This document shows, in pieces, positions 85-10,164 of a stretch of DNA of 10,164 bases. Under the pieces are notes generated by a model that saw only the letters and a program-made list of their open reading frames with translations, was not told the DNA's origin and did not search any database. The stretch lies in IMG/VR virus record IMGVR_UViG_2617270946_000003, one strand, 5' to 3'. Numbering within the stretch: the stretch's first letter is position 1; each line of letters opens with the position of its first letter. Position numbers and translations under genes: made by a program. Origin of the DNA: a virus (lineage: Duplodnaviria; Heunggongvirae; Uroviricota; Caudoviricetes).

Positions 85-1323
85 CTATGATATGCGCTGA
101 AATAATCCTGCCTGTCTGATACCCGGAGATGATGTCCATAGCATCGGACCACATGCACGCCACGTGCCCGGTAAACGGGTCTCCCCCACATTACCGGAAG
201 CAACCAGGGGAGTACCATCCGAAAGGCAACATGCAGACAGTGATGAGCCGGCAATGGCTGAGCCCGGTGCCATATCCCCCGAATAACTCGTCGCATAATA
301 TGCCGCAAGGACAAAAGAACCGACACCAAACAGTCCGCTGTCAGGACTTCCTGACGGTCCCTGAGGTCCTGCCGGACCTGCGGCTCCCGTATCTCCTTTT
401 GGCCCCTGAGGCCCTGCCTGACCTGCGGCTCCCGTATCCCCTTTTGGCCCCTGTGGTCCTGCCGGGCCTGCAGCTCCCGTATCTCCCTTTGGCCCCTGAG
501 GTCCTGCCGGACCTGCGGCTCCCGTATCTCCTTTTGGCCCCTGAGGTCCTGCCGGGCCTGCAGCTCCCGTATCTCCCTTTGGCCCCTGAGGTCCTGCCGG
601 ACCTGCGGCTCCCGTATCTCCTTTTGGCCCCTGAGGCCCTGCCTGACCTGCGGCTCCCGTATCCCCTTTTGGCCCCTGAGGCCCTGCCGGGCCTGCGGCT
701 CCCGTATCCCCTTTTGGCCCCTGAAGCCCTGCCGGGCCTGTATCCCCCTTGTCGCCCTTCGGTCCCAGTGGTCCGCCCGGATCGCCCTGCTCACCTTTCG
801 GACCTGTATCCCCCTTATCGCCCTTGTCACCTTTATCCCCTTTCGGCCCCGGTGGCCCTGCCGGGCCTGTATCGCCCTTGTCCCCCTTCTGTCCCTGTGG
901 ACCAGTTGCTCCGGTGTCGCCTTTCAGTCCCTGTGGCCCCACGGCAGTTTCGGCTTTCTCAGCAGCTTCTCGCGCCCTGCGCACAGCCTCATCCGCCGCC
1001 GCTTCCAGCTTCTTCAGTGCATCAGGATAATACGCTGCATCCGTTTCACGGAGCAGAAAGGCATTCAGGGTGCCCGGTTCGTCGTCGGCCATGACATCAA
1101 TCTCGCCGGCGCATGCCGGCTGACGACCTTCCACGCACAAGGTCACACGATAACGCCCCGGCTCAACCTGCATGCTGTAACTGCCCGTTTCGCCTGGCTG
1201 GTGCTCTGCCACCGTGGTGACTATCACCGTCTCACTCGTTCGCGTGGCTTTCAGCTCTATGGTGCAGTCCGGTACCGGTTTTCCTGTACCATCCTTCAGC
1301 ACACCTGAAATCTGTACTGACAT
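85..1323 (-). CDS. stf: Side tail fibre protein with collagen-like (Gly-X-Y) repeat shaft; N-terminal ~100 aa resemble the lambda Stf N-terminal domain
   Basis: 412-aa ORF with ATG at 1323..1321 preceded by a G-rich SD. N-terminus [17 protein letters not shown]...GTLNAFL resembles lambda Stf ([26 protein letters not shown]...GTLNDFL, from memory). Followed by a charged helical segment, then ~65 Gly-X-Y triplets and a ~95-aa non-repetitive C-terminus. Confidence 0.85.
359..718. repeat. Eight near-identical head-to-tail copies of a 45-bp unit (15 codons, [15 protein letters not shown]-type) inside the fibre gene
   Basis: Unit cctgaggtcctgccggacctgcggctcccgtatctccttttggcc begins at 359, 404, 449, 494, 539, 584, 629 and 674. 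Units at 359, 494 and 584 are identical, as are those at 404 and 629. More degenerate 9-bp collagen triplet repeats continue to ~942. Confidence 0.92.
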
Positions 1324-2096
1324 ATTCCCCCCACAAAAAAGCCCACCAGAACCGGCGGGCTGTCATAACTCTGTGTTACCTGGCTATGGTAGTTCACCGT
1401 CATCTGCTGACCACCAAACTGCTCCGCATCCACCTGCATCCCCACAATGGCCGTGTTCGGGTAGCACTGTTTCACATCGATGATTTCGGTGTATGACGAC
1501 CACAGCGTTCTGTTCTGCAGCTGGTCCGTGGTGCTGTCCGCCGTCTCCCTGACCATCCGGATGTTAAAGGGGCGGGGAGGCAGATTATCCAGAATCACCG
1601 AGGCCAGGAACTGTGAGGTGGTCTTGCCGTTAATGGTGACATCCTTTTCTGTCACCCAGTTACCGTTACGCTGTAACTGAATCAGCAGACGGACAGAGGA
1701 CGGATTACGGTCACCCTTTGACGTGGTCTCCACCAGTGACTGCACCCCGAAGGTCACCCGCAGGCGGTCAATGTTCGCTGACGTAATGGTGCGTGTTACC
1801 GGTTTTGCCCTGGTCACTTCGACACCCAGTACAGTTTCAGAGCCGGAGGACTCAAAGCCTTCCGGTGGTGTCTGCTCCTGCTCCCCGGCACGCCAGACCG
1901 CGGTCACACCGTGTATCACGGGATTACCGTCCGTGTCCGTCAGCGGGGTTTTGTTCACCAGAATACTCTGCAGGCTTTTCACCGGGCCTTCTATCGGTCC
2001 CTCACCAATCGCATCAATCACGCTCATCATCTGCGTGGATTTGAGATTGTCTTTCGCCTCACGAGGCGTGTGTGCCTTACCGCCACCTTTTCCCAT
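1296..2096 (-). pseudogene. J: Truncated central tail fibre / host specificity protein J: only the N-terminal ~236 codons, then ~30 unrelated codons to a stop
   Basis: MGKGGGKAHTPREAKDNLKSTQ...NIRMVRETADSTTDQLQNRTLWSSYTEIIDVKQCYPNTA matches the lambda J N-terminus (MGKGSSKGHTPREAKDNLKSTQ..., from memory) at roughly 80% identity. Similarity stops after ...QQMTVNYH (~1385). Lambda J is 1132 aa. SD GGGGAAGG precedes the ATG at 2096. Confidence 0.85.
1333..1361 (-). terminator. Hairpin plus U-tract just upstream of the fibre start codon (putative intrinsic terminator/attenuator)
   Basis: Minus-strand RNA AGCCCGCCGG-UU-CUGGUGGGCU followed by UUUUUUGU, ~10 nt before the fibre ATG. Stem includes two G-U pairs. 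Confidence 0.4.
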
Positions 2097-2194
2097 ACAG
2101 CCTTCCCCTGAATAAATTAACCGCCACTTGCCATTCCGTACAGAAGTCGGATATCCTTCGCCCGAAAAGCATGAAACACATTTCTGCCATGCTA

Positions 2195-2236
2195 AAGAGA
2201 AACCCCGGTATCAGCAGATACCGGGGTTTTCTTTCA
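2195..2236. terminator. GC-rich perfect inverted repeat with U-rich flank on both strands (possible bidirectional intrinsic terminator) in the I-J spacer
   Basis: aaccccggtat (2201..2211) / cagcag loop / ataccggggtt (2218..2228): 11-bp perfect stem. Followed by ttttctttc on the plus strand and by UUUCUCUUU on the minus strand. Confidence 0.45.
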
Positions 2237-2301
2237 TGCCCACCGATAATCCTGTTGGTTAAAACCGGTAATGGCATAAAAATTCTGAATATCTTCACAT
2301 T

Positions 2302-2329
2302 TTCACAAACTGACCGTGGCGCGTATAAT
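2302..2329 (+). promoter_or_regulatory. Sigma70-like promoter on the plus strand (antisense to the late operon)
   Basis: TTCACA (2302..2307), 16-bp spacer, perfect TATAAT (2324..2329), in an AT-rich context. Predicted start near 2336. Confidence 0.4.
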
Positions 2330-2335
2330 TTCTCT

Positions 2336-2441
2336 GCGTTAATTTTTTTGTCGTGATATAAGAATAATTCCTTACACTTAATCTTCGTAACTCTCCCGCA
2401 GTTCCTGTCCGCGATCACTGCGGGATTTTTTTATTCTTTTT
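2336..2441 (+). ncRNA. Candidate ~100-nt non-coding transcript between the predicted promoter and the plus-strand terminator
   Basis: No ATG-initiated ORF between 2336 and 2424 on the plus strand. Bounded by the promoter (2302..2329) and the terminator hairpin (2395..2424) plus T-tract. Purely a sequence-based prediction. Confidence 0.25.
2395..2441 (+). terminator. Plus-strand intrinsic terminator abutting the 3' end of gene I
   Basis: Stem cccgcag (2395..2401) / ctgcggg (2418..2424) followed by tttttttattcttttt (2426..2441). On the minus strand the A-run precedes the stem, so it is oriented for plus-strand termination only. Confidence 0.5.
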
Positions 2442-3105
2442 ACCCCTGCCGCCCGATAACCACGACCTTTCCGCCCCCGCCTTCATCACGGGTGCTGATG
2501 TCCTGGGATATACGGCGGGAGCCAACCAGCATTTCCCCGTAAGGCACCGGCATCGGGTTCCCCTGGGCAATCATGTTATCCAGCGAGGAAAAGTACGTGT
2601 TCTGTCTGCCGTTATCCGTTGCGCGGTAATCCGGTGTTTTTGCCTTCGGGGCCAGCATCTGGGCCACACCGCCCAGTATCATGCTGGCACCCAGTGAAAA
2701 CAGCATCGTGGTGGCAGAAAAACCACCGGCACTCAGGGCTGTACCCCATAACGCCATCGAGCCTCCGGCCGTGAAGAAAGAGCCCACGATGGCTGCCGCC
2801 CCCAACACAATCTGCAGTCCACCCTTTCCGGCCCCGGCCAGTCGCGGCACAATGTGGATGACCGTTCCCTCACCCAGCTGTTCGTGAAGGCGGGCGTACA
2901 CCACCTCCGGTGCCGTGTCTTCACCGGCAATACGTATCTGGTACCAGCCTTCGTTCATCTGAAGGCGAAAGCCCGGCATCTGCATCGACAGGGCGCGAAT
3001 GGCTTCCGCTGCCGTGTTCACATACAGGCTGAGGCGGCGGCCAAATCGTTGTAAATCCCCGTGGTTGCCCACGGTTGAGCCAGAGATAACAGCTTCCACC
3101 ATCAT
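2440..3105 (-). pseudogene. I: Tail assembly protein I homologue lacking its native N-terminus (first ~15 codons come from the FII/I deletion junction)
   Basis: From residue ~16 (GDLQRFGRR...) to the C-terminus (...GGKVVVIGRQG) it resembles lambda gpI (223 aa, from memory). The ATG at 3105 lies inside FII-derived sequence in another frame. Stop TAA at 2442..2440. Confidence 0.75.
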
Positions 3106-3391
3106 CCGGCGAAACCCGGTCTATCCAGAAGTTTTCCTCACCGATGGTCAGCGTGTCTCCACGCCGCAGTTGCCGCACATCATCAGTCCGGACAAACAGG
3201 GACGGGCTGGAGCCTTCAACGCGCACGCCCTGTCCGGCATAGCTGATATTTTCAGGGTCATCAAAAACACCACGTATTACTGCGCCGGACTGCTCACCGG
3301 ATGTCATGGTGGCTGACGTTCCCATGTACCCGCGTATCGTTTCATCGGCGCGGGCAATGGCAGCATCGAACAGGTTATCGAAATCAGCCAC
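2921..3391 (-). pseudogene. FII: Head-tail joining protein FII with altered 3' end: ~110 lambda-like codons, then read-through into gene I sequence out of frame (156-aa chimeric ORF)
   Basis: MADFDNLFDAAIARADETIRGYMGTSAT...EENFWIDRVSPDDGGSCYLWL matches lambda FII (117 aa) and diverges after ~residue 110. GTG start at 3391 with SD GGGAGG 4 nt upstream. The FI-FII gap is 11 nt, as in lambda. Confidence 0.8.
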
Positions 3392-3402: not shown

Positions 3403-3798
3403 TTATTGCATTCTGGCCAGGCCGCGCTCTGTCATTTCAGCTGCCACACCGGCAGAGACACGGAACGCCGTTCCCGGCAGCACAAATGCCACAGTGTCAT
3501 CCCGCGTGGCGTGAAGTGCATCAGTATGCAGCGTCACCAGTGCCACGACCGTGACCAGAGCAGCCGTATCAATCACGGTATCCGGCTGCGCTGATACCAC
3601 CTCATTTTCATGTCCGGTCAGCGCATTTTCCGGGCTGACAGATGTGTCCTGACCGGCAGCGTCATCCGTGTCATCAAGCTCCTCTTCCAGCTCTGCCACA
3701 CGGAGCACCAGTTCTTCTTTCGTCCCCGTCAGGCTGACATCACGGTTCAGTTGCTCACCCAGCACCTGAAGACGGGCAATCAGTTCATCTTTCGTCAT
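3403..3798 (-). CDS. FI: DNA packaging / head assembly protein FI
   Basis: 131 aa from the ATG at 3798 (MTKDELIARL...AEMTERGLARMQ) matches lambda gpFI (132 aa). SD GGAGGAG upstream. The upstream extension in the ORF track (MALRGHF...) overlaps a hairpin and is not taken as the start. Confidence 0.9.
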   Translation of the reverse strand: MTKDELIARLQVLGEQLNRDVSLTGTKEELVLRVAELEEELDDTDDAAGQDTSVSPENALTGHENEVVSAQPDTVIDTAALVTVVALVTLHTDALHATRDDTVAFVLPGTAFRVSAGVAAEMTERGLARMQ

Positions 3799-3807
3799 GG
3801 ACTCCTC

Positions 3808-3837
3808 CACAGAGAGAAAATGGCCCCGAAGGGCCAT
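3808..3837 (-). terminator. Stable hairpin with UUCG tetraloop plus U-rich tract directly after the major capsid gene stop (attenuator or mRNA-stabilising element)
   Basis: Minus-strand RNA AUGGCCC-UUCG-GGGCCAU (3837..3820) followed by UUUUCUCUCU, in the 41-nt gap between E and FI. Confidence 0.4.
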
Positions 3838-3839
3838 GA

Positions 3840-4865
3840 TTACGCCAGTTGTACGGACACGAACGCATCAGGATCAGCCAGCAGCATCAGCGGTGCTGAC
3901 TGAATCATGGTGAACTCACGCGCCGGATCGCCGGTGGTCACCCAGTTTTTCGGGTAGCGGGCAGAGGCGTTAATACCTTCGCGCTGTGCGTCCGCATCCT
4001 GAATGCAGCCATAGGTGCGCAGACCGCGTGCCTGAGTGTTCCCCAGCACCATCGTGTTGTCCGGCAGGAAGTTCTTTTTGACGTCGTTTTCCACGTACTG
4101 TCCGGAATACACGACGATCGCCGTATCGCCATACATCCCCTTATAGGACACCGCTTCGCCCAGGTCTTTTACCGCTGTCTCCAGCTCGGAATTAGAGCCG
4201 CGACGGGTATCCAGCTTCTCCTTGACGGCTTTGAAGGAACGGAACAGCGCCCAGCCTTTCGGATCAAACACGATGATATTCACCACGCCGCTGGCGTTCA
4301 GCGCGTAGGCTTCGATATCGTCGGTCGGGTCATACGTGGACTTGTCACGCTTGCTCCACTCCGTGCCGCCGGACTGCGTGATGTTGTTCGCCGCACTGCG
4401 GCCCATATCCACCTCAACCGGATCGAAGGCTTCACCGGTCATGGTGTATTTGCCCTTGAGCACGGCAGAAACGGCCTGCATCTCTTCGACCTGAGCAATG
4501 GCCAGCTCTTCGTCACGCATGTTCTGCATGATGATGCGACGGCGGCGGTAAGTCGGGTCCGCCAGATTCTGCGGATCTTCATCCGGCAGGCGACGCAGGG
4601 TCATCTGCGGATTCACTTCATGCTTGGGTTTGACATATCCCGGCGTAAATTCAGAGGTGGAGCCGCCACGGGAACGGATAACCTCACCGGAAACAATCGG
4701 CGAAACGTACAGCGCCATGTTTACCAGTCCCGGAATTTGTGAGAGATAGACTTTCTCCGTAGTGAAGGGATAGCTCTCACGGAAAAAGAGACGCAGAAAC
4801 AGCGGATCAAACTTAAATTTCTGCTCATTTGCCGCCAGCAGCTGGGCGGTTGTGTACATCGACAT
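3840..4865 (-). CDS. E: Major capsid protein E
   Basis: 341 aa, MSMYTTAQLLAANEQKFKFDPLFLRLFF...FVSVQLA, essentially lambda gpE, with identical length and identical gaps to D (55 nt) and FI (41 nt). Confidence 0.97.
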   Translation of the reverse strand: MSMYTTAQLLAANEQKFKFDPLFLRLFFRESYPFTTEKVYLSQIPGLVNMALYVSPIVSGEVIRSRGGSTSEFTPGYVKPKHEVNPQMTLRRLPDEDPQNLADPTYRRRRIIMQNMRDEELAIAQVEEMQAVSAVLKGKYTMTGEAFDPVEVDMGRSAANNITQSGGTEWSKRDKSTYDPTDDIEAYALNASGVVNIIVFDPKGWALFRSFKAVKEKLDTRRGSNSELETAVKDLGEAVSYKGMYGDTAIVVYSGQYVENDVKKNFLPDNTMVLGNTQARGLRTYGCIQDADAQREGINASARYPKNWVTTGDPAREFTMIQSAPLMLLADPDAFVSVQLA

Positions 4866-4920: not shown

Positions 4921-5253
4921 TTAAACGATGCTGATTGCCGTTCCGGCAAACGCGGTCCGTTTTTTCGTCTCGTCGCTGGCAGCCTCCGGCCAGAGCACAT
5001 CCTCATAACGGAACGTGCCGGACTTGTAGAACGTCAGCGTGGTGCTGGTCTGGTCAGCAGCAACCGCAAGAATGCCAACGGCAGCACCGTCGGTGGTGCC
5101 ATCCCACGCAACCAGCTTACGGGTGGAGGTGTCCAGCATCAGCGGGGTCATTGCAGGCGCTTTCGCACTCAATCCGCCGGGCGCGGTTGCGGTATGAGCC
5201 GGGTCACTGTTGCCCAGCGGCTGGTAATGGGTAAAGGTTTCTTTGCTCGTCAT
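4921..5253 (-). CDS. D: Head decoration protein D
   Basis: 110 aa from the ATG at 5253 ([12 protein letters not shown]...TAISIV), near-identical to lambda gpD. SD AAGGG 6 nt upstream. The ORF track start at 5259 (MFM...) is 2 codons too long. Confidence 0.95.
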
Positions 5254-5262
5254 AAACATCCC

Positions 5263-5868
5263 TTACACTGGTGTGTTCAGCAAATCGTTAACGGCATCAG
5301 ATGCCAGGTTACCTGCAGCCAGCGGTGCCGGTGCCCCCTGCATCAGACGATCCAGCGCAGTATCACTGCGCGCCTGTGCACTCTGTGGTGCTGCGGCCAG
5401 AATGCGGCGGGCCGTTTCCACGGTCATACCGGGGGGTTCTGCCAGCACGCGGGCCTGTTCTTCGCGTCCGTGAGCCTCCTCACAGTTGAGGATCCCCATA
5501 ATGCGGCTGTTTTCTGCCGCAACCGCAGCGTTGATCTGCGCGTTCACGTCCGGCTGCGCCGCGCTGGCGTTTTCGCCCTCCATCGCTGGCACCACGCCAG
5601 TAACGTCAGCCTGCGAAGCAGTGGCTGAAACAGTTGTTGATTGAGTCTCTTTGGTCATTCGCCCTCCTGAGAGACGGGATTTACGTGCATCCAGTGCATC
5701 ACGCATGATGGTGATCGCATCGGTACTGTTAACAAGTTCATCAGCCAGTCCGGCATCAATGGCCTCCTGACCGCTGTACACTGCAGCCTCGGTATCCAGC
5801 ACAGCCTGCACGGACAGGCCGGTATATGCCGACACCTTCTGTGCAAACATCCGGCGGGTTGCATCCAT
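5263..5868 (-). CDS. Nu3: Scaffolding protein Nu3, nested in frame within the 3' third of C
   Basis: In-frame ATG at 5868 (MDATRRMFAQ...) gives 201 aa sharing the C stop, the same length and arrangement as lambda Nu3. No strong SD is visible, so confidence is lower. Confidence 0.6.
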   Translation of the reverse strand: MDATRRMFAQKVSAYTGLSVQAVLDTEAAVYSGQEAIDAGLADELVNSTDAITIMRDALDARKSRLSGGRMTKETQSTTVSATASQADVTGVVPAMEGENASAAQPDVNAQINAAVAAENSRIMGILNCEEAHGREEQARVLAEPPGMTVETARRILAAAPQSAQARSDTALDRLMQGAPAPLAAGNLASDAVNDLLNTPV

Positions 5869-6582
5869 CCGGGACTGCAGTGTTTCCCGGACATCATCCG
5901 GTAGATGGCTGTAGGGGTTGCCATCCACCTTATGGCTGCCGCTGTAAATCAGCGTGATTTCCACGCCCTGTTTCTCCAGCGCAGCACCGTAATTACTGTG
6001 AGCCATCATGACGCCGATGGAGCCTGTCCGGGCGGTCTGCGTGACCAGACGCCGGGAGGCGGCACTGGCAAGCAGCTGACCTGCGCTGCAGTTCATGTCA
6101 TTGGCCAGCGCCCATACCGGCTTTATGTCACGCACACGGGCGATGATGTCAGCGCAGTCAAATGCCCCTGCCACCATTCCGCCGGGCGTGTCCATATCCA
6201 GCAGAATGCCGTCCACCATCGGGTCGCTGGCAGCCTGTTGCAGACGGGCGATAATGCCGTTGTAACCAGTCATCCCCGAATACGGCTGCAGCGCCCGCGT
6301 CCGGCAGACCAGCGTGCCGGAAACCGGCAGCACGGCGATGCCGTTCATGACCTGATAACTGCGGGCCTGTCGTGGTCCGTCATCATTAACGGATAACGCC
6401 AGCTTCGCGGGTGCCTCTCCGGCAGTCAGGCTGTCACCGGACACCGCATCCGTCAGGCGGCTGATCCCAAGCTGGCCTGCAAGCGCACAAAAGAAAACCC
6501 GCGCATAGGCGGGTTCAAGCATAAGCGGCTCATTAAAGGCCATGCTGGCAATATGCGGGAGATTACGCAGCTCTGCTGTCAC
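5263..6582 (-). CDS. C: Head maturation protease / scaffold C
   Basis: 439 aa from GTG at 6582 (VTAELRNLPHIASMAFNEPLMLEPAYARVFF...), near-identical to lambda gpC. SD GGAGGA 5 nt upstream. Overlaps the end of B by 20 nt, as in lambda. The ORF track start at 6717 is an upstream artefact. Confidence 0.92.
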   Translation of the reverse strand: MTAELRNLPHIASMAFNEPLMLEPAYARVFFCALAGQLGISRLTDAVSGDSLTAGEAPAKLALSVNDDGPRQARSYQVMNGIAVLPVSGTLVCRTRALQPYSGMTGYNGIIARLQQAASDPMVDGILLDMDTPGGMVAGAFDCADIIARVRDIKPVWALANDMNCSAGQLLASAASRRLVTQTARTGSIGVMMAHSNYGAALEKQGVEITLIYSGSHKVDGNPYSHLPDDVRETLQSRMDATRRMFAQKVSAYTGLSVQAVLDTEAAVYSGQEAIDAGLADELVNSTDAITIMRDALDARKSRLSGGRMTKETQSTTVSATASQADVTGVVPAMEGENASAAQPDVNAQINAAVAAENSRIMGILNCEEAHGREEQARVLAEPPGMTVETARRILAAAPQSAQARSDTALDRLMQGAPAPLAAGNLASDAVNDLLNTPV

Positions 6583-7735
6583 TCTTCTCCTCCTCTGTTG
6601 ATTGTCGCAGTCCGGATTCAAATGCCGCAGCCGCCCAGGCGGGCGGTTTAAGACCGGCTGCACGGCGCTCCATCGTTTCACGGACCTGCTGGGCAAAAAT
6701 TTCCTGATAGTCGTCACCGCGTTTTGCGCACTCTTTCTCGTAGGTACTCAGTCCGGCTTCTATCAGCATCACCGCTTCCTGTACTTCTTTCAGACCATCG
6801 ATGGCCATACGACCGGAGCCTATCCAGTCACAGTTCCCCCAGGCGCTGCGGGCTTCCTGAAAGCTGAAACGCGCTTTTGAAGGTAACGTCACCACGCGGC
6901 GAACGATGGCCTCTTCCAGCCAGCACAGAAACATCTGGCTCGCCTGACGGGATGCGACGAATTTTCGCCGCCCCATAAAGTACGCCCACGACTCGTTCGC
7001 ACTGGCCCGTGCCGTGGAATAGCTCATCTGGGCGTAATTCCGGGAAAGCTGCTCATACGAGACACCCAGCCCGGCAGCGATATACCGCAACAGTGACTGC
7101 TCAAACACGGAGTAGCCGTTATCCGTATCCTGAGCCGTCTGCAGGTTCAGTGAGTCACCCGGCATCAGGTGCGGCACTTTTGCGCCTCCCAGCCGAACCG
7201 GTGCTGCGGCGTAATACGCGGCAATTTCACCAATCCAGCCGGTCAGCTTGTCCCGCTGCTCCTGACTGTTCGCGCCCAGAATAAAATCCATCGCTGACTG
7301 CGTATCCAGCTCACTCTCAATGGTGGCGGCATACATCGCCTTCACAATGGCGCTCTGCAGCTGCGTGTTCTGCAGCGTGTCGAGCATCTTCATCTGCTCC
7401 ATCACGCTGTAAAACACATTTGCACCGCGGGTCTGCCCGTCCTCCACGGGTTCAAAAACGTGAATGAACGAGGCGCGCCCGCCGGGTAACTCACGGGGTA
7501 TCCATGTCCATTTCTGCGGCATCCAGCCAGGATAGCCGTCCTCGCTGACGTAATATCCCAGCGCCGCACCGCTGTCATTAATCTGCACACCGGCACGGCA
7601 GTTCCGGCTGTCGCCGGTATTGTTCGGGTTGCTGATGCGCTTCGGGCTGACCATCCGGAACTGTGTCCGGAAAAGCCACGACGGACTGGTATCCCAGGTG
7701 GCCTGAACGAACAGTTCACCGTTAAAGGCGTGCAT
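6563..7735 (-). pseudogene. B: Portal protein B lacking roughly its N-terminal 143 codons
   Basis: C-terminal ~390 aa (MHAFNGELFVQATWDTS...EEEKSDSRAA) match lambda gpB (533 aa). The A-stop to C-start distance is 1193 nt here versus 1781 nt in lambda, so 588 bp are missing. The first in-frame ATG is 7735; the track start at 7759 is TTG. Confidence 0.85.
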
Positions 7736-7778
7736 GCAGTGCCGCACGGGCAGCGGCAAGTTCTTCCTGTCGCGTCAT
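7722..7778 (-). pseudogene. W: Remnant of head-tail joining gene W: 15 conserved codons, then 3 novel codons and a stop
   Basis: ATG at 7778 overlaps the A stop (ATGA). Translation [18 protein letters not shown]-stop versus lambda W [21 protein letters not shown]... (68 aa). Confidence 0.7.
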
Positions 7779-9700
7779 TCATCCTCTCCGGATAAGGCAC
7801 GGGCGTAATCTGCCAGTGTTTTCTTGTTGGTTGCTGCACCATCCTCTTCCTTCAGGCTCGCCAGCAGTGCACTGAGATCCAGCTGCCAGCGGGAAATACT
7901 GATGCGCAGCGCCGCCAGCGCATAAACGAAGCAGTCGAGCGCCTCATTGCGTCGTTTTTTGCTGTCCCACAGTATTTTTTTCCTGCCATCCACCCATTTT
8001 TCGACCTGCTCTTCAGCCGTCAGCTGCTGCGCTTCGGTCAGATCAAAAATATCCGGGTTATTCGGGAAGTGAACGGCACCGGGAAGCGGTTCATCCCCTT
8101 CCGGCGTCAGTGTGAAGCGGTTATAAATCTGCTCTTTCGCGGTATCCGTACCGATTTCGGTAAGGTAAACCCCGTTTTTGTTTCGCTTACGTGGCATGCT
8201 GGCCACCGGCTTTCCGTAGACGGATGCCCCTTTAATGGGGATCACCCGGAACAGCCCATGTTTTTTCGAGCGTTCATACACGATGGTCGGGTCAATCCCG
8301 CCAGTATCCCAGCAGATACGGGATACCGACATTTCTGCACCATTCCGGCGGGTATAGGTTTTATTGATGGCCTCATCCACACGCAGCAGCGTCTGTTCAT
8401 CGTCGTGGCGGCCCATAATAATCTGCCGATCAATCAGCCAGCTTTCCTCACCCGGCCCCCATCCCCATACGCGCATTTCGTAGCGATCCAGCTGGGAGTC
8501 GATACCGGCGGTCAGGTAAGCCACACGGTCAGGAACGGGCGCTGAATAATGCTCTTTCCGCTCTGCCATCACTTCAGCATCCGGACGTTCGCCAATTTTC
8601 GCCTCCCACGTCTCACCGAGCGTGGTGTTTACGAAGGTTTTACGTTTTCCCGTATCCCCTTTCGTTTTCATCCAGTCTTTGACAATCTGCACCCAGGTGG
8701 TGAACGGGCTGTACGCTGTCCAGATGTGAAAGGTCACACTGTCAGGTGGCTCAATCTCTTCACCGGATGACGAAAACCAGAGAATGCCATCACGGGTCCA
8801 GATCCCGGTCTTTTCGCAGATATAACGGGCATCAGTAAAGTCCAGCTCCTGCTGGCAGATGACGCAGGCATTATGCTCGCAGAGATAAAACACGCTGGAG
8901 GGGTCATCCGGCGTCCATTTGAGGCCAAACGGCGTCTCTTTGTCGCCAAATTTAAGATACTGCTCCTCCCCGCAGTGCGGGCAGGCAACATGAAAACGCA
9001 TAAAATGCGGGGATTCACTGGCTGCACGCTCAATCTGGCAGGTGCCTCTCACTTTGGGCGTGGAGCCACGGATGGACTTTGGCCAGACCGAGCCTTCAAT
9101 ACGCTTATCGCCCAGGAACGTCGGAGAGCCTTCCTGTTCAATATCCTCATCAAAGGCAGCAAGTTCATCATAACCCGCCACATCCACTGACTTTTCACGG
9201 TAGTTTTTTGCCGCTTTACCGCCCAGGCACCAGAAGCCACGACCATTGGAAAAACGCTTCATGGTGAGCGTGTTATCCCGGTGCTTTTTGCCATACCACG
9301 GGGCCAGCGCCAGCAGCGACGGAATATCACGAATAGTCGGTTCAACGTGGGTTTTCATAAAGTTCTCGGCATCACCATCCGTCGGCAACCAGATAAGGGT
9401 GTTGCGCTGCTTATGCTCTATGAAGTAGGCATAAACACCCAGCAGCATTTTGGAATAACCAACACGGGCAGACTTCACCACATTCACCTCACGGATGTAG
9501 TCGCTGCCCATCGCATTCATGATGGCCCGCTGAAAGGGCAGTGTTTCCCAGCGCCCTTCCTGGTATGCGGATTCTTTCGGGAGATAGTAATTGGCATCCG
9601 CCCATTCAACGGCGGTCTGTGGCTCCGGCCTGAACAGTGAGCGAAGCCCGGCGCGGACAAAATGCCGCAGCCTGTTAACCTGACTGTTCGATATATTCAC
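7775..9700 (-). CDS. A: Terminase large subunit A
   Basis: 641 aa (MNISNSQVNRLRHFVRAGLRSLFRPEPQTAVEWADANYYLP...LADYARALSGEDE), near-identical to lambda gpA and the same length. The start codon at 9700 is GTG in this sequence. Overlaps Nu1 by 26 nt, as in lambda. Confidence 0.97.
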   Translation of the reverse strand: MNISNSQVNRLRHFVRAGLRSLFRPEPQTAVEWADANYYLPKESAYQEGRWETLPFQRAIMNAMGSDYIREVNVVKSARVGYSKMLLGVYAYFIEHKQRNTLIWLPTDGDAENFMKTHVEPTIRDIPSLLALAPWYGKKHRDNTLTMKRFSNGRGFWCLGGKAAKNYREKSVDVAGYDELAAFDEDIEQEGSPTFLGDKRIEGSVWPKSIRGSTPKVRGTCQIERAASESPHFMRFHVACPHCGEEQYLKFGDKETPFGLKWTPDDPSSVFYLCEHNACVICQQELDFTDARYICEKTGIWTRDGILWFSSSGEEIEPPDSVTFHIWTAYSPFTTWVQIVKDWMKTKGDTGKRKTFVNTTLGETWEAKIGERPDAEVMAERKEHYSAPVPDRVAYLTAGIDSQLDRYEMRVWGWGPGEESWLIDRQIIMGRHDDEQTLLRVDEAINKTYTRRNGAEMSVSRICWDTGGIDPTIVYERSKKHGLFRVIPIKGASVYGKPVASMPRKRNKNGVYLTEIGTDTAKEQIYNRFTLTPEGDEPLPGAVHFPNNPDIFDLTEAQQLTAEEQVEKWVDGRKKILWDSKKRRNEALDCFVYALAALRISISRWQLDLSALLASLKEEDGAATNKKTLADYARALSGEDE

Positions 9701-10164
9701 TCAGCAACCCCGGTATCAGTTCATCCAGCGCGGCTGCTTTGTTCATGGCTTTGATGATATCCCGTTTCAGGAAATCAACATGTCGGTTTTCCAGTTCCGG
9801 AAAACGCCGCTGCACCGACAGGGGGATCCCGTCGAGAATACTGGCAATTTCACCTGCGATCCGCGACAACACGAAAGTACAGAATGCGGTTTCCACCACT
9901 TCAGCGGAGTCTCTGGCATTCTTCAGTTCCTGTGCGTCGGCCTGCGCACGCGTAAGTCGATGGCGTTCGTACTCAATAGTCCCTGGCTGGAGATCTGTCT
10001 CGCTGGCCTGCCGCAGTTCTTCAACTTCCCGGCGCAGCTTTTCGTTCTCAATTTCAGCATCCCTTTCGGCATACCATTTTATGACGGCGGCAGAGTCATA
10101 AAGCACCTCATTACCCTTGCCACCGCCTCGCAGAACGGGCATTCCCTGTTCCTGCCAGTTCTGA
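9675..10164 (-). CDS. Nu1: Terminase small subunit Nu1 (5' end outside the window; ~26 N-terminal codons missing from view)
   Basis: ...QNWQEQGMPVLRGGGKGNEVLYDSAAVIKWYAERDAEIENEKLRREVEELRQASE...SEYIEQSG matches lambda Nu1 residues ~19-181. The frame stays open to the window edge. Confidence 0.93.
   Translation of the reverse strand, partial: QNWQEQGMPVLRGGGKGNEVLYDSAAVIKWYAERDAEIENEKLRREVEELRQASETDLQPGTIEYERHRLTRAQADAQELKNARDSAEVVETAFCTFVLSRIAGEIASILDGIPLSVQRRFPELENRHVDFLKRDIIKAMNKAAALDELIPGLLSEYIEQSG

Follow-up and report, generated by a model that had tools for sequence, protein, structure and literature searches.

A prophage small RNA gene, very probably of the PasB/EcOnc22-24 family, in the enlarged I-J spacer of a tail-defective lambdoid prophage

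What occupies the space between the tail genes I and J of a lambdoid prophage when that space is several times longer than in phage lambda, where I ends at 15444, J starts at 15505 and the gap is 60 nt? The question is raised by a 10,164-nt stretch of Caudoviricetes DNA (IMG/VR record IMGVR_UViG_2617270946_000003; this whole stretch is called the window here), which is late-region DNA of a lambdoid prophage whose genes are read on the minus strand. Because the J start is at 2096 and the I stop codon at 2440-2442, the I-J spacer of the window comprises positions 2097-2439, i.e., 343 nt, with a GC fraction of 0.42 vs. 0.57 for the window. An earlier reading of the letters alone, made before any database search (the sequence-only reading), had remarked on the enlarged, AT-rich spacer, correctly as these figures show, and had proposed that it holds a non-coding moron producing a plus-strand RNA of ~100 nt. 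We conclude that positions 2273-2432 on the plus strand are very probably the gene for an Hfq-dependent small RNA (sRNA), carried as a non-coding moron and belonging to the family of EcOnc22, EcOnc23 and EcOnc24 of Escherichia coli O157:H7 Sakai and PasB of enteropathogenic E. coli (EPEC) E2348/69. The parts of this unit are as follows.

2273-2301, plus strand: conserved AT-rich block 5' of the -35 element, forming the left edge of the conserved sRNA cassette
2302-2329, plus strand: sigma-70 promoter, TTCACA (2302-2307), 16 bp, TATAAT (2324-2329), agreeing with the consensus at 11 of 12 positions
2336-2432, plus strand: predicted primary sRNA transcript of 94-97 nt, its 5' end placed by the -10 hexamer
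2360-2368, plus strand: three A-R-N triplets, AAGAAUAAU, with AAnAAnAAn in 11 of 11 aligned alleles and varying third positions
2369-2388, plus strand: conserved core UCCUUACACUUAAUCUUCGU, predicted to be single-stranded (mostly unpaired in minimum free energy and centroid folds)
2395-2432, plus strand: intrinsic terminator, stem CCCGCAG (2395-2401) / CTGCGGG (2418-2424), variable 16-nt loop, T7 in the DNA or U7 in the RNA (2426-2432)

When both strands of the 10-kb window were scanned, the promoter was the sole site matching the sigma-70 consensus at 10 or more of the 12 positions; the near-consensus promoter claimed in the sequence-only reading is confirmed. First-order Markov shuffles gave an expectation of 0.026 such sites per 10 kb, and such a site occurred in 0.8% of random 343-mers of the spacer's composition; the strength of the match far exceeds chance. 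The terminator hairpin begins 65 nt 3' of the -10 hexamer. Here the earlier reading was right about the stem at 2395-2424, its T-tract and their distance from the promoter, and wrong in letting the T-tract abut the I stop codon, from which it is separated by 7 nt. Because of this gap the RNA is antisense to the intercistronic stretch between I and J only, with no overlap of I coding sequence, and not, as had been proposed, to the 3' end of the I message. The transcribed stretch contains no ATG, in line with the earlier statement that no ATG-initiated open reading frame (ORF) lies between promoter and terminator; its sole GTG opens a two-codon ORF, and a scan of 2336-2432 allowing ATG, GTG or TTG starts found no ORF of more than two codons.

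The unit thus has the features of a moron, namely its own promoter and terminator, a payload between conserved late genes, absence from lambda and a GC content below that of its flanks. Morons, as Juhala et al. reportedly set out in 2000, are autonomous promoter-payload-terminator units between late genes, for example lom and bor of lambda. The window unit is like phage morons both in its low GC relative to its neighbors and in being expressible from the prophage (a prediction, for the window allele), and unlike those of the lom/bor type in that its payload is an RNA and it points against the late operon.

Assignment to a family came from RNAs already detected experimentally at the same spacer and in the same orientation, which also bears out the proposed non-coding moron. 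PasB is among the five prophage sRNAs detected by RIL-seq (ligation and sequencing of interacting RNAs) in EPEC O127:H6 E2348/69 and confirmed by Northern blot (PMC8550237). It is 83 nt long, depends on Hfq for its stability and is present at a higher level in the non-activating condition; with 37 RIL-seq interactions it ranks 15 by interaction number, and since it is mostly the second RNA in chimeras, with partners that are mainly coding sequence (CDS) or 5' untranslated region (5'UTR), it qualifies by the RIL-seq criteria as an sRNA acting on mRNAs (PMC8550237). PasB is located in prophage PP6 (Pearl Mizrahi et al. 2021, PMC8550237; Zhu, Shabalina & Storz 2026, bioRxiv 10.64898/2026.05.13.724894), at NC_011601.1 1466343-1466261 on the minus strand, and was probed with AATCCCGCAGTGATCGCGGAGCT (PMC8550237 table S6). 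On the plus strand of that genome, I runs as far as 1466255 and J begins at 1466496; PasB therefore lies between I and J on the opposite strand, and its place and orientation match those of the window unit.

The likeness extends to the parts of the unit. Each RNA is encoded antisense to the late operon within the I-J spacer, its 3' end a few nucleotides from the I stop codon, and both have the TTCACA-16-TATAAT promoter (92% identity over the block), the terminator stem, U7, the AAnAAnAAn triplets and the UCCUU...AUCUUC core. The annotated 83 nt of PasB align to window positions 2350-2432, and the PasB Northern probe fits window 2405-2427 at 20 of its 23 positions (3 mismatches), against a chance expectation of 0 matches. 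The two alleles are nonetheless clearly different, with bodies 69.9% identical: they diverge in the 5' third (GUCGUGAUAU against GCCCGAGUAAC) and in the stretch ahead of the terminator, a terminator loop longer by 5 nt is a further difference, and the longest exact word in common is 25 nt.

Homologous RNAs were also recovered with Hfq by CRAC (crosslinking and analysis of cDNAs) from O157:H7 Sakai, as EcOnc22 (prophage Sp15, the Shiga toxin 1 (Stx1) phage), EcOnc23 (Sp14) and EcOnc24 (Sp11) (Tree et al. 2014, PMC4104026); EcOnc22 gave a Northern band of ~85 nt and was destabilized in a delta-hfq strain (PMC4104026). The probe common to the three, GGGAGAGAACGATGAAGATTAACTGATGAGTTA, is antisense to the RNA of the Sp15 I-J spacer, and its alignment to the window RNA falls on the conserved core; Sp14 and Sp11 have the I-J spacer as in Sp15. 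These RNAs of ~85 nt, Hfq-bound and Hfq-stabilized, have in common with the window unit the locus, orientation, core, terminator stem and U7, and differ from it in the body (67.7% identity), the promoter block (67%; the second TTCACA is replaced and the -10 element is AATAAT) and the loop. The published EcOnc22 coordinates (2902714-2902774; PMC4104026 table S2) fall ~120-130 nt to the left of the RNA in NC_002695.2, in the wrong part of the spacer, consistent with use of an earlier sequence version in that table; by its probe, EcOnc22 lies at about 1636-1727 of our extracted Sakai locus L125.

Linked in this way, through published Northern probes and sequences, EcOnc22-24 and PasB are by homology one family. 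This link is new here, because a table in the PasB report notes homologues in enterohemorrhagic E. coli for PasA and PasD and none for PasB (PMC8550237), the term EcOnc is absent from the 2026 PasB census paper, and neither PasB paper cites EcOnc22-24 as homologues. The window unit has each family property for which we checked: location in the I-J spacer on the opposite strand, a 3' end by the I stop codon, homology over promoter, body and terminator, and lack of coding capacity. By analogy, an Hfq-dependent RNA of ~83-85 nt would be expected from the window allele as well. The RNA therefore belongs to a known family rather than a new one, although one without an Rfam entry: Rfam 15 scans of the window, of E2348/69 PasB and of Sakai EcOnc22, a check suggested together with the earlier reading, returned no relevant family at E <= 1, and the family thus lacks a curated covariance model. 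A weak match to the eukaryotic mir-214 precursor at 5743-5841 on the minus strand, inside the protease gene, scored 20.5 bits vs. a gathering threshold of 66.7 (E 0.49) and was dismissed as chance.

To see how the family varies, we gathered more than 100 further spacers from IMG/VR by terminator sequence, 32 of them distinct, and aligned 11 alleles. Between the window and PasB-type alleles the promoter block is 92-96% identical and the RNA body 65-71%. Invariant or nearly so in all 11 alleles are the initial CTGC(G/A)TTA, a U-run, the A-R-N triplets, the core (as TCC(T/A)T and (A/G)ATCTT), the 7-bp stem and U7, while the loop varies. The block at 2273-2301 is likewise near-invariant, in the allele alignment and in that of the 32 spacers. 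The spacer as a whole is a two-part mosaic, whose right part, from ~2273, is the sRNA cassette and whose left part occurs in two unrelated forms; BLAST matches to spacers with the other left part start at window 2273-2276. The position of the sRNA unit is constant, being the I-J spacer in every homologue examined.

Conservation by BLASTN, another check that the earlier reading had called for, proved extensive: the whole spacer was found, unannotated, in 1,659 of the 5,426 complete E. coli genomes. An intact prophage of E. coli strain S1-CAM-01-A (L001) has it at 100% identity, between genes annotated as 'tail assembly protein' and 'gpJ'. By megablast the window RNA occurs in 800 of the 5,426 genomes (~15%, ST131 isolates included), 613 of them at 99% identity or more, and the E2348/69 PasB sequence in 956, all at 90% or more; related alleles are found in Stx1a- and Stx2c-converting phages at 93.7% identity. 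The published PasB census used a BLAST word size of 28 with more than 75% query coverage, and the variants it reports differ by few nucleotides. It probably did not count the window allele, since the longest exact word that this allele has in common with PasB, at 25 nt, is shorter than the word size. In a set of species-representative genomes the terminator was found only in Escherichia albertii and in one 3.4-kb contig labeled as Streptomyces, in agreement with the published census, which reports Pas sRNAs as confined to Escherichia and Shigella. That contig (NZ_JBHTEB010000006.1, L004, labeled Streptomyces flavalbus, 3,408 bp) matches window 1382-3063, spanning J, spacer and I, at 95% identity and is almost certainly E. 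coli prophage contamination in a Streptomyces assembly.

How such an RNA might act can be pictured from its parts and its homologues. The sRNA unit would run against the late operon, from its own near-consensus sigma-70 promoter to its own intrinsic terminator, and by virtue of these signals and of its orientation a lysogen could express the sRNA while the late genes are silent. PasB and EcOnc22 were both seen in uninduced lysogen cultures (PMC8550237, PMC4104026), and by analogy the window allele should be expressed in the lysogen too. The product would be an RNA of ~85-97 nt whose largely unstructured 5' part contains a U-run, the A-R-N triplets and the UCCUU...AAUCUUC core, with a hairpin and U7 at the 3' end. 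A U-rich stretch, AAUCUUCGUAACUCU, precedes the hairpin at 2395-2424, and U7 follows it at 2426-2432; judged by sequence and fold, the general Hfq-binding module (U-rich strand, terminator hairpin, poly(U) tail) is thus present, and binding is predicted. Hfq is reported to prefer A-R-N repeats (PMC4104026), and the triplets AAGAAUAAU at 2360-2368 may be a motif for its distal face, such that the 3' hairpin and U-tail together with the A-R-N repeat would bind Hfq. The core at 2369-2388 is a candidate seed region; this conserved unstructured core, the variable 5' part, or both would serve as seed, and the UUCCUU of the core could pair with a Shine-Dalgarno-like AAGGAA. Going by the RIL-seq results for PasB, the most likely mode would be base pairing in trans, on Hfq, with mRNAs of the host and accessory genome.

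Several observations weigh against this assignment or the action we ascribe to the RNA. The 5' part folds weakly, and the folding z of the whole RNA, ~-2.1, is mostly due to the terminator. Terminator covariation, a further check proposed with the earlier reading, was sought among the alleles and none was found, because the stem never varies. The annotated 5' end of PasB lies 21-22 nt past its -10 hexamer, vs. the ~7 nt expected. That end falls directly after the conserved U-run, and the CTGC(G/A)TTA between it and the -10 hexamer is kept in all alleles; possible reasons are an error in the predicted start near 2336, processing of the RNA (trimming within the U-run), or imprecision of the published end, which is coverage-based. 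PasB itself comes without an established seed or target motif, being absent from table S7, with a target motif seen for only 3 of the 5 Pas sRNAs (PMC8550237), and a 2021 review gave the targets of EcOnc22-24 as unknown. Finally, our literature search gave no expression data for the window allele, and no paper turned up when full texts were searched for the terminator sequence.

The remainder of the spacer, between the cassette and J, is a separate module with a prominent hairpin.

2097-2272, no strand assigned: left module of the long type, outside the sRNA cassette, with the J ribosome-binding region and a hairpin
2200-2229, no strand assigned: hairpin with 13-bp arms, AAACCCCGGTATC (2200-2212) and GATACCGGGGTTT (2217-2229)

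The sequence-only reading had seen this inverted repeat upstream of the promoter; it is real, with arms of 13 bp rather than the 11 given then, and it belongs to the exchangeable left module and not to the sRNA unit. It folds at -27 to -28 kcal/mol with a z of ~-6.3 on either strand, and looks terminator-like on both strands because an A-run and a T-run flank the arms; a scan with a simple terminator consensus did not list it. The left module exists in a long form of ~175 nt, as in the window, and an unrelated short form of ~75-80 nt (also given as ~110 nt), as in E2348/69 and Sakai, and both forms combine freely with sRNA alleles. In phage records the module is found solely at the I-J position, an apparent second place having turned out to be the palindrome matching itself; a 17-nt similarity at window 9703-9719 is inside coding sequence and looks like chance. 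In the short module (E2348/69 locus L002, Sakai L125) the corresponding place is taken by a hairpin of unrelated sequence, with TTGTTTTT after it in the late-operon sense. Among four versions of that hairpin there is one compensatory change, C:G to U:A, suggestive yet not significant (78 of 500 shuffles reach as much). The presence of a hairpin just 5' of the sRNA promoter thus appears to be maintained, and the one in the window may stop late-sense transcription that is not antiterminated before it reaches J, or may shield the sRNA promoter from incoming transcription. A scan of 1800-2800 gave no minus-strand promoter-like site for an RNA ending at the left hairpin; nor was there a convincing promoter for a second RNA with its end there, the only candidate being a weak 9/12 site at 2128-2157.

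The genes around the spacer, identified by their Pfam domains and by comparison with the intact S1-CAM-01-A prophage, which served as the reference for deletions, are these.

85-1323, minus strand: tail-fiber gene, with a prophage tail-fiber N-terminal domain followed by collagen triple-helix repeats
1296-2096, minus strand: truncated J gene, N-terminal fragment with start at 2096 (Pfam FNIII-A_GpJ)
2440-3021, minus strand: tail assembly gene I, intact, with stop codon at 2440-2442 (Pfam Lambda_tail_I)
2921-3391, minus strand: FII (Pfam)
3403-3837, minus strand: FI (Pfam)
3840-4865, minus strand: E (Pfam)
4921-5259, minus strand: D (Pfam)
5263-6717, minus strand: S49 protease, C (Pfam)
7775-9700, minus strand: terminase A (Pfam)

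The I gene of the window is colinear with the annotated I gene (9344-9925) of the intact prophage. Compared with the latter, the window prophage is evidently tail-defective, since two segments are missing. At the junction at 3061-3063, ~7 kb are absent, from the 3' end of FII to the last 42 nt of K, taking out Z, U, V, G, T, H, M, L and most of K; at the junction at 1382-1386, 3.4 kb are absent, from about codon 238 of J to a point upstream of the tail-fiber gene, and with them the rest of J and lom. The J fragment accordingly consists of ~238 native codons and an out-of-frame tail past the junction. Both junctions show an overlap of 3-5 nt, which suggests microhomology. Gene I and the sRNA unit sit on the 1.7-kb island spared between the two deletions. 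One IMG/VR contig (L063) has both junctions and another (L077) has that at 3061 with further rearrangements; no complete RefSeq E. coli genome has them. In the tail-fiber gene, the repeats at ~355-940 form an array that matches itself at 45-nt offsets and whose length varies among related contigs.

Given this setting, other explanations of the spacer have to be weighed. The RNA is convergent with the late operon, lies wholly inside the I-J spacer and keeps that position in all homologues examined, as might be expected if its role were in cis: pairing after induction with the fully complementary I-J stretch of the late transcript (with RNase III cleavage or a change in J translation as the result), interference of its strong convergent promoter with late transcription into J, or loss of the sRNA from its trans targets through titration by the abundant late mRNA. 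We think such a role unlikely to be the explanation, since the RNA leaves 7 nt to the I stop codon and ~240 nt to the J start, and so overlaps neither a coding sequence nor a ribosome-binding site, and since the chimeras of PasB with 37 other RNAs on Hfq are the behavior of a trans-acting RNA. In the window, moreover, the unit is intact in a prophage without most tail genes and most of J, and because of that loss a cis role in tail expression would make no sense here. A cis effect is nevertheless compatible with a trans-acting sRNA, and is possible as a secondary one. The same decay of the prophage (~7 kb of tail genes, and 3.4 kb of J and lom, deleted) could mean that the unit is an inert relic, for which we see very little room: on its island between the deletions, its promoter, body and terminator are 100% identical to those of intact prophages, and the allele recurs at 99% identity or more in 613 complete genomes.

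That the RNA might instead be a sponge, or anti-sRNA, sequestering an sRNA of the core genome as AgvB and AsxR do, gains some plausibility from the documentation of prophage anti-sRNAs in the same strain background (PMC4104026), from the conserved A-R-N repeat, which is more typical of mRNA-like Hfq partners, and from one RIL-seq chimera that joins PasB with RNA from the pasA intergenic region. AgvB and AsxR (RF02702 and RF02703) are indeed like the window unit in being prophage-encoded, Hfq-binding, moron-like, non-coding and convergent with late transcription, with conserved 3' and variable 5' parts as in the family compared here. They are unlike it in lying downstream of PR' and the stx genes, in their length of 51-60 nt and in showing no match of sequence or structure; the window unit, an RNA of 85-97 nt in the tail region, has neither that length and place nor their ~42-nt conserved 3' region, and the Rfam scan, which included both of their models, gave nothing at E <= 1. 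Together with the mRNA-acting character of PasB (second RNA in most chimeras, with CDS and 5'UTR partners), this makes a sponge improbable. Least credible, to the point of being nearly negligible, is a small protein or the remnant of a protein gene. Two ORFs do exist, one of 113 aa at 2077-2418 on the minus strand and one of 94 aa at 2072-2356 on the plus strand, and across the region two phage records have an annotated 'hypothetical protein' or 'tail fiber protein'. However, the 113-aa ORF has no Pfam match, both ORFs cross the hairpin and the promoter, and the RefSeq annotation of the listed complete E. coli genomes is blank here. Among homologous spacers, of 236-346 nt, there are indels of 1, 2, 4, 5 and 46 nt, which are not multiples of three and break the frame, so that no reading frame is conserved; a decayed protein gene, which the earlier reading had named as the finding that would overturn it, is thus not what the homologues reveal.

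With an sRNA gene of the PasB/EcOnc22-24 family as the preferred explanation, a more far-reaching idea may be considered, tentatively and with more doubt than confidence: the I-J sRNA locus could be a seed-swapping cassette, and the window allele, with a target set of its own, a domesticated host regulator that the census missed. The idea is based on the conserved promoter and invariant terminator that surround a body diverging by ~30%, and on alleles that recombine independently of the neighboring module.

As a discovery the unit itself matters little, because the RNA family was already validated by experiment, in 2014 and 2021. What is new here is limited to the window allele, the recognition that PasB and EcOnc22-24 are one family, and a probable undercounting by the census. 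With family alleles ~30% apart and the window allele about as common (800 of 5,426 genomes) as the studied PasB type (956 of 5,426), the published prevalence of PasB is probably an underestimate, and since there is no Rfam model, annotation pipelines pass over the gene: none of the RefSeq records examined marks it. The combination of a conserved promoter with a divergent body offers a route to asking, through allele swaps, how prophage sRNAs retarget host regulation; if seed-swapping is true, the targets of the window allele would be distinct from those of PasB and EcOnc22-24.

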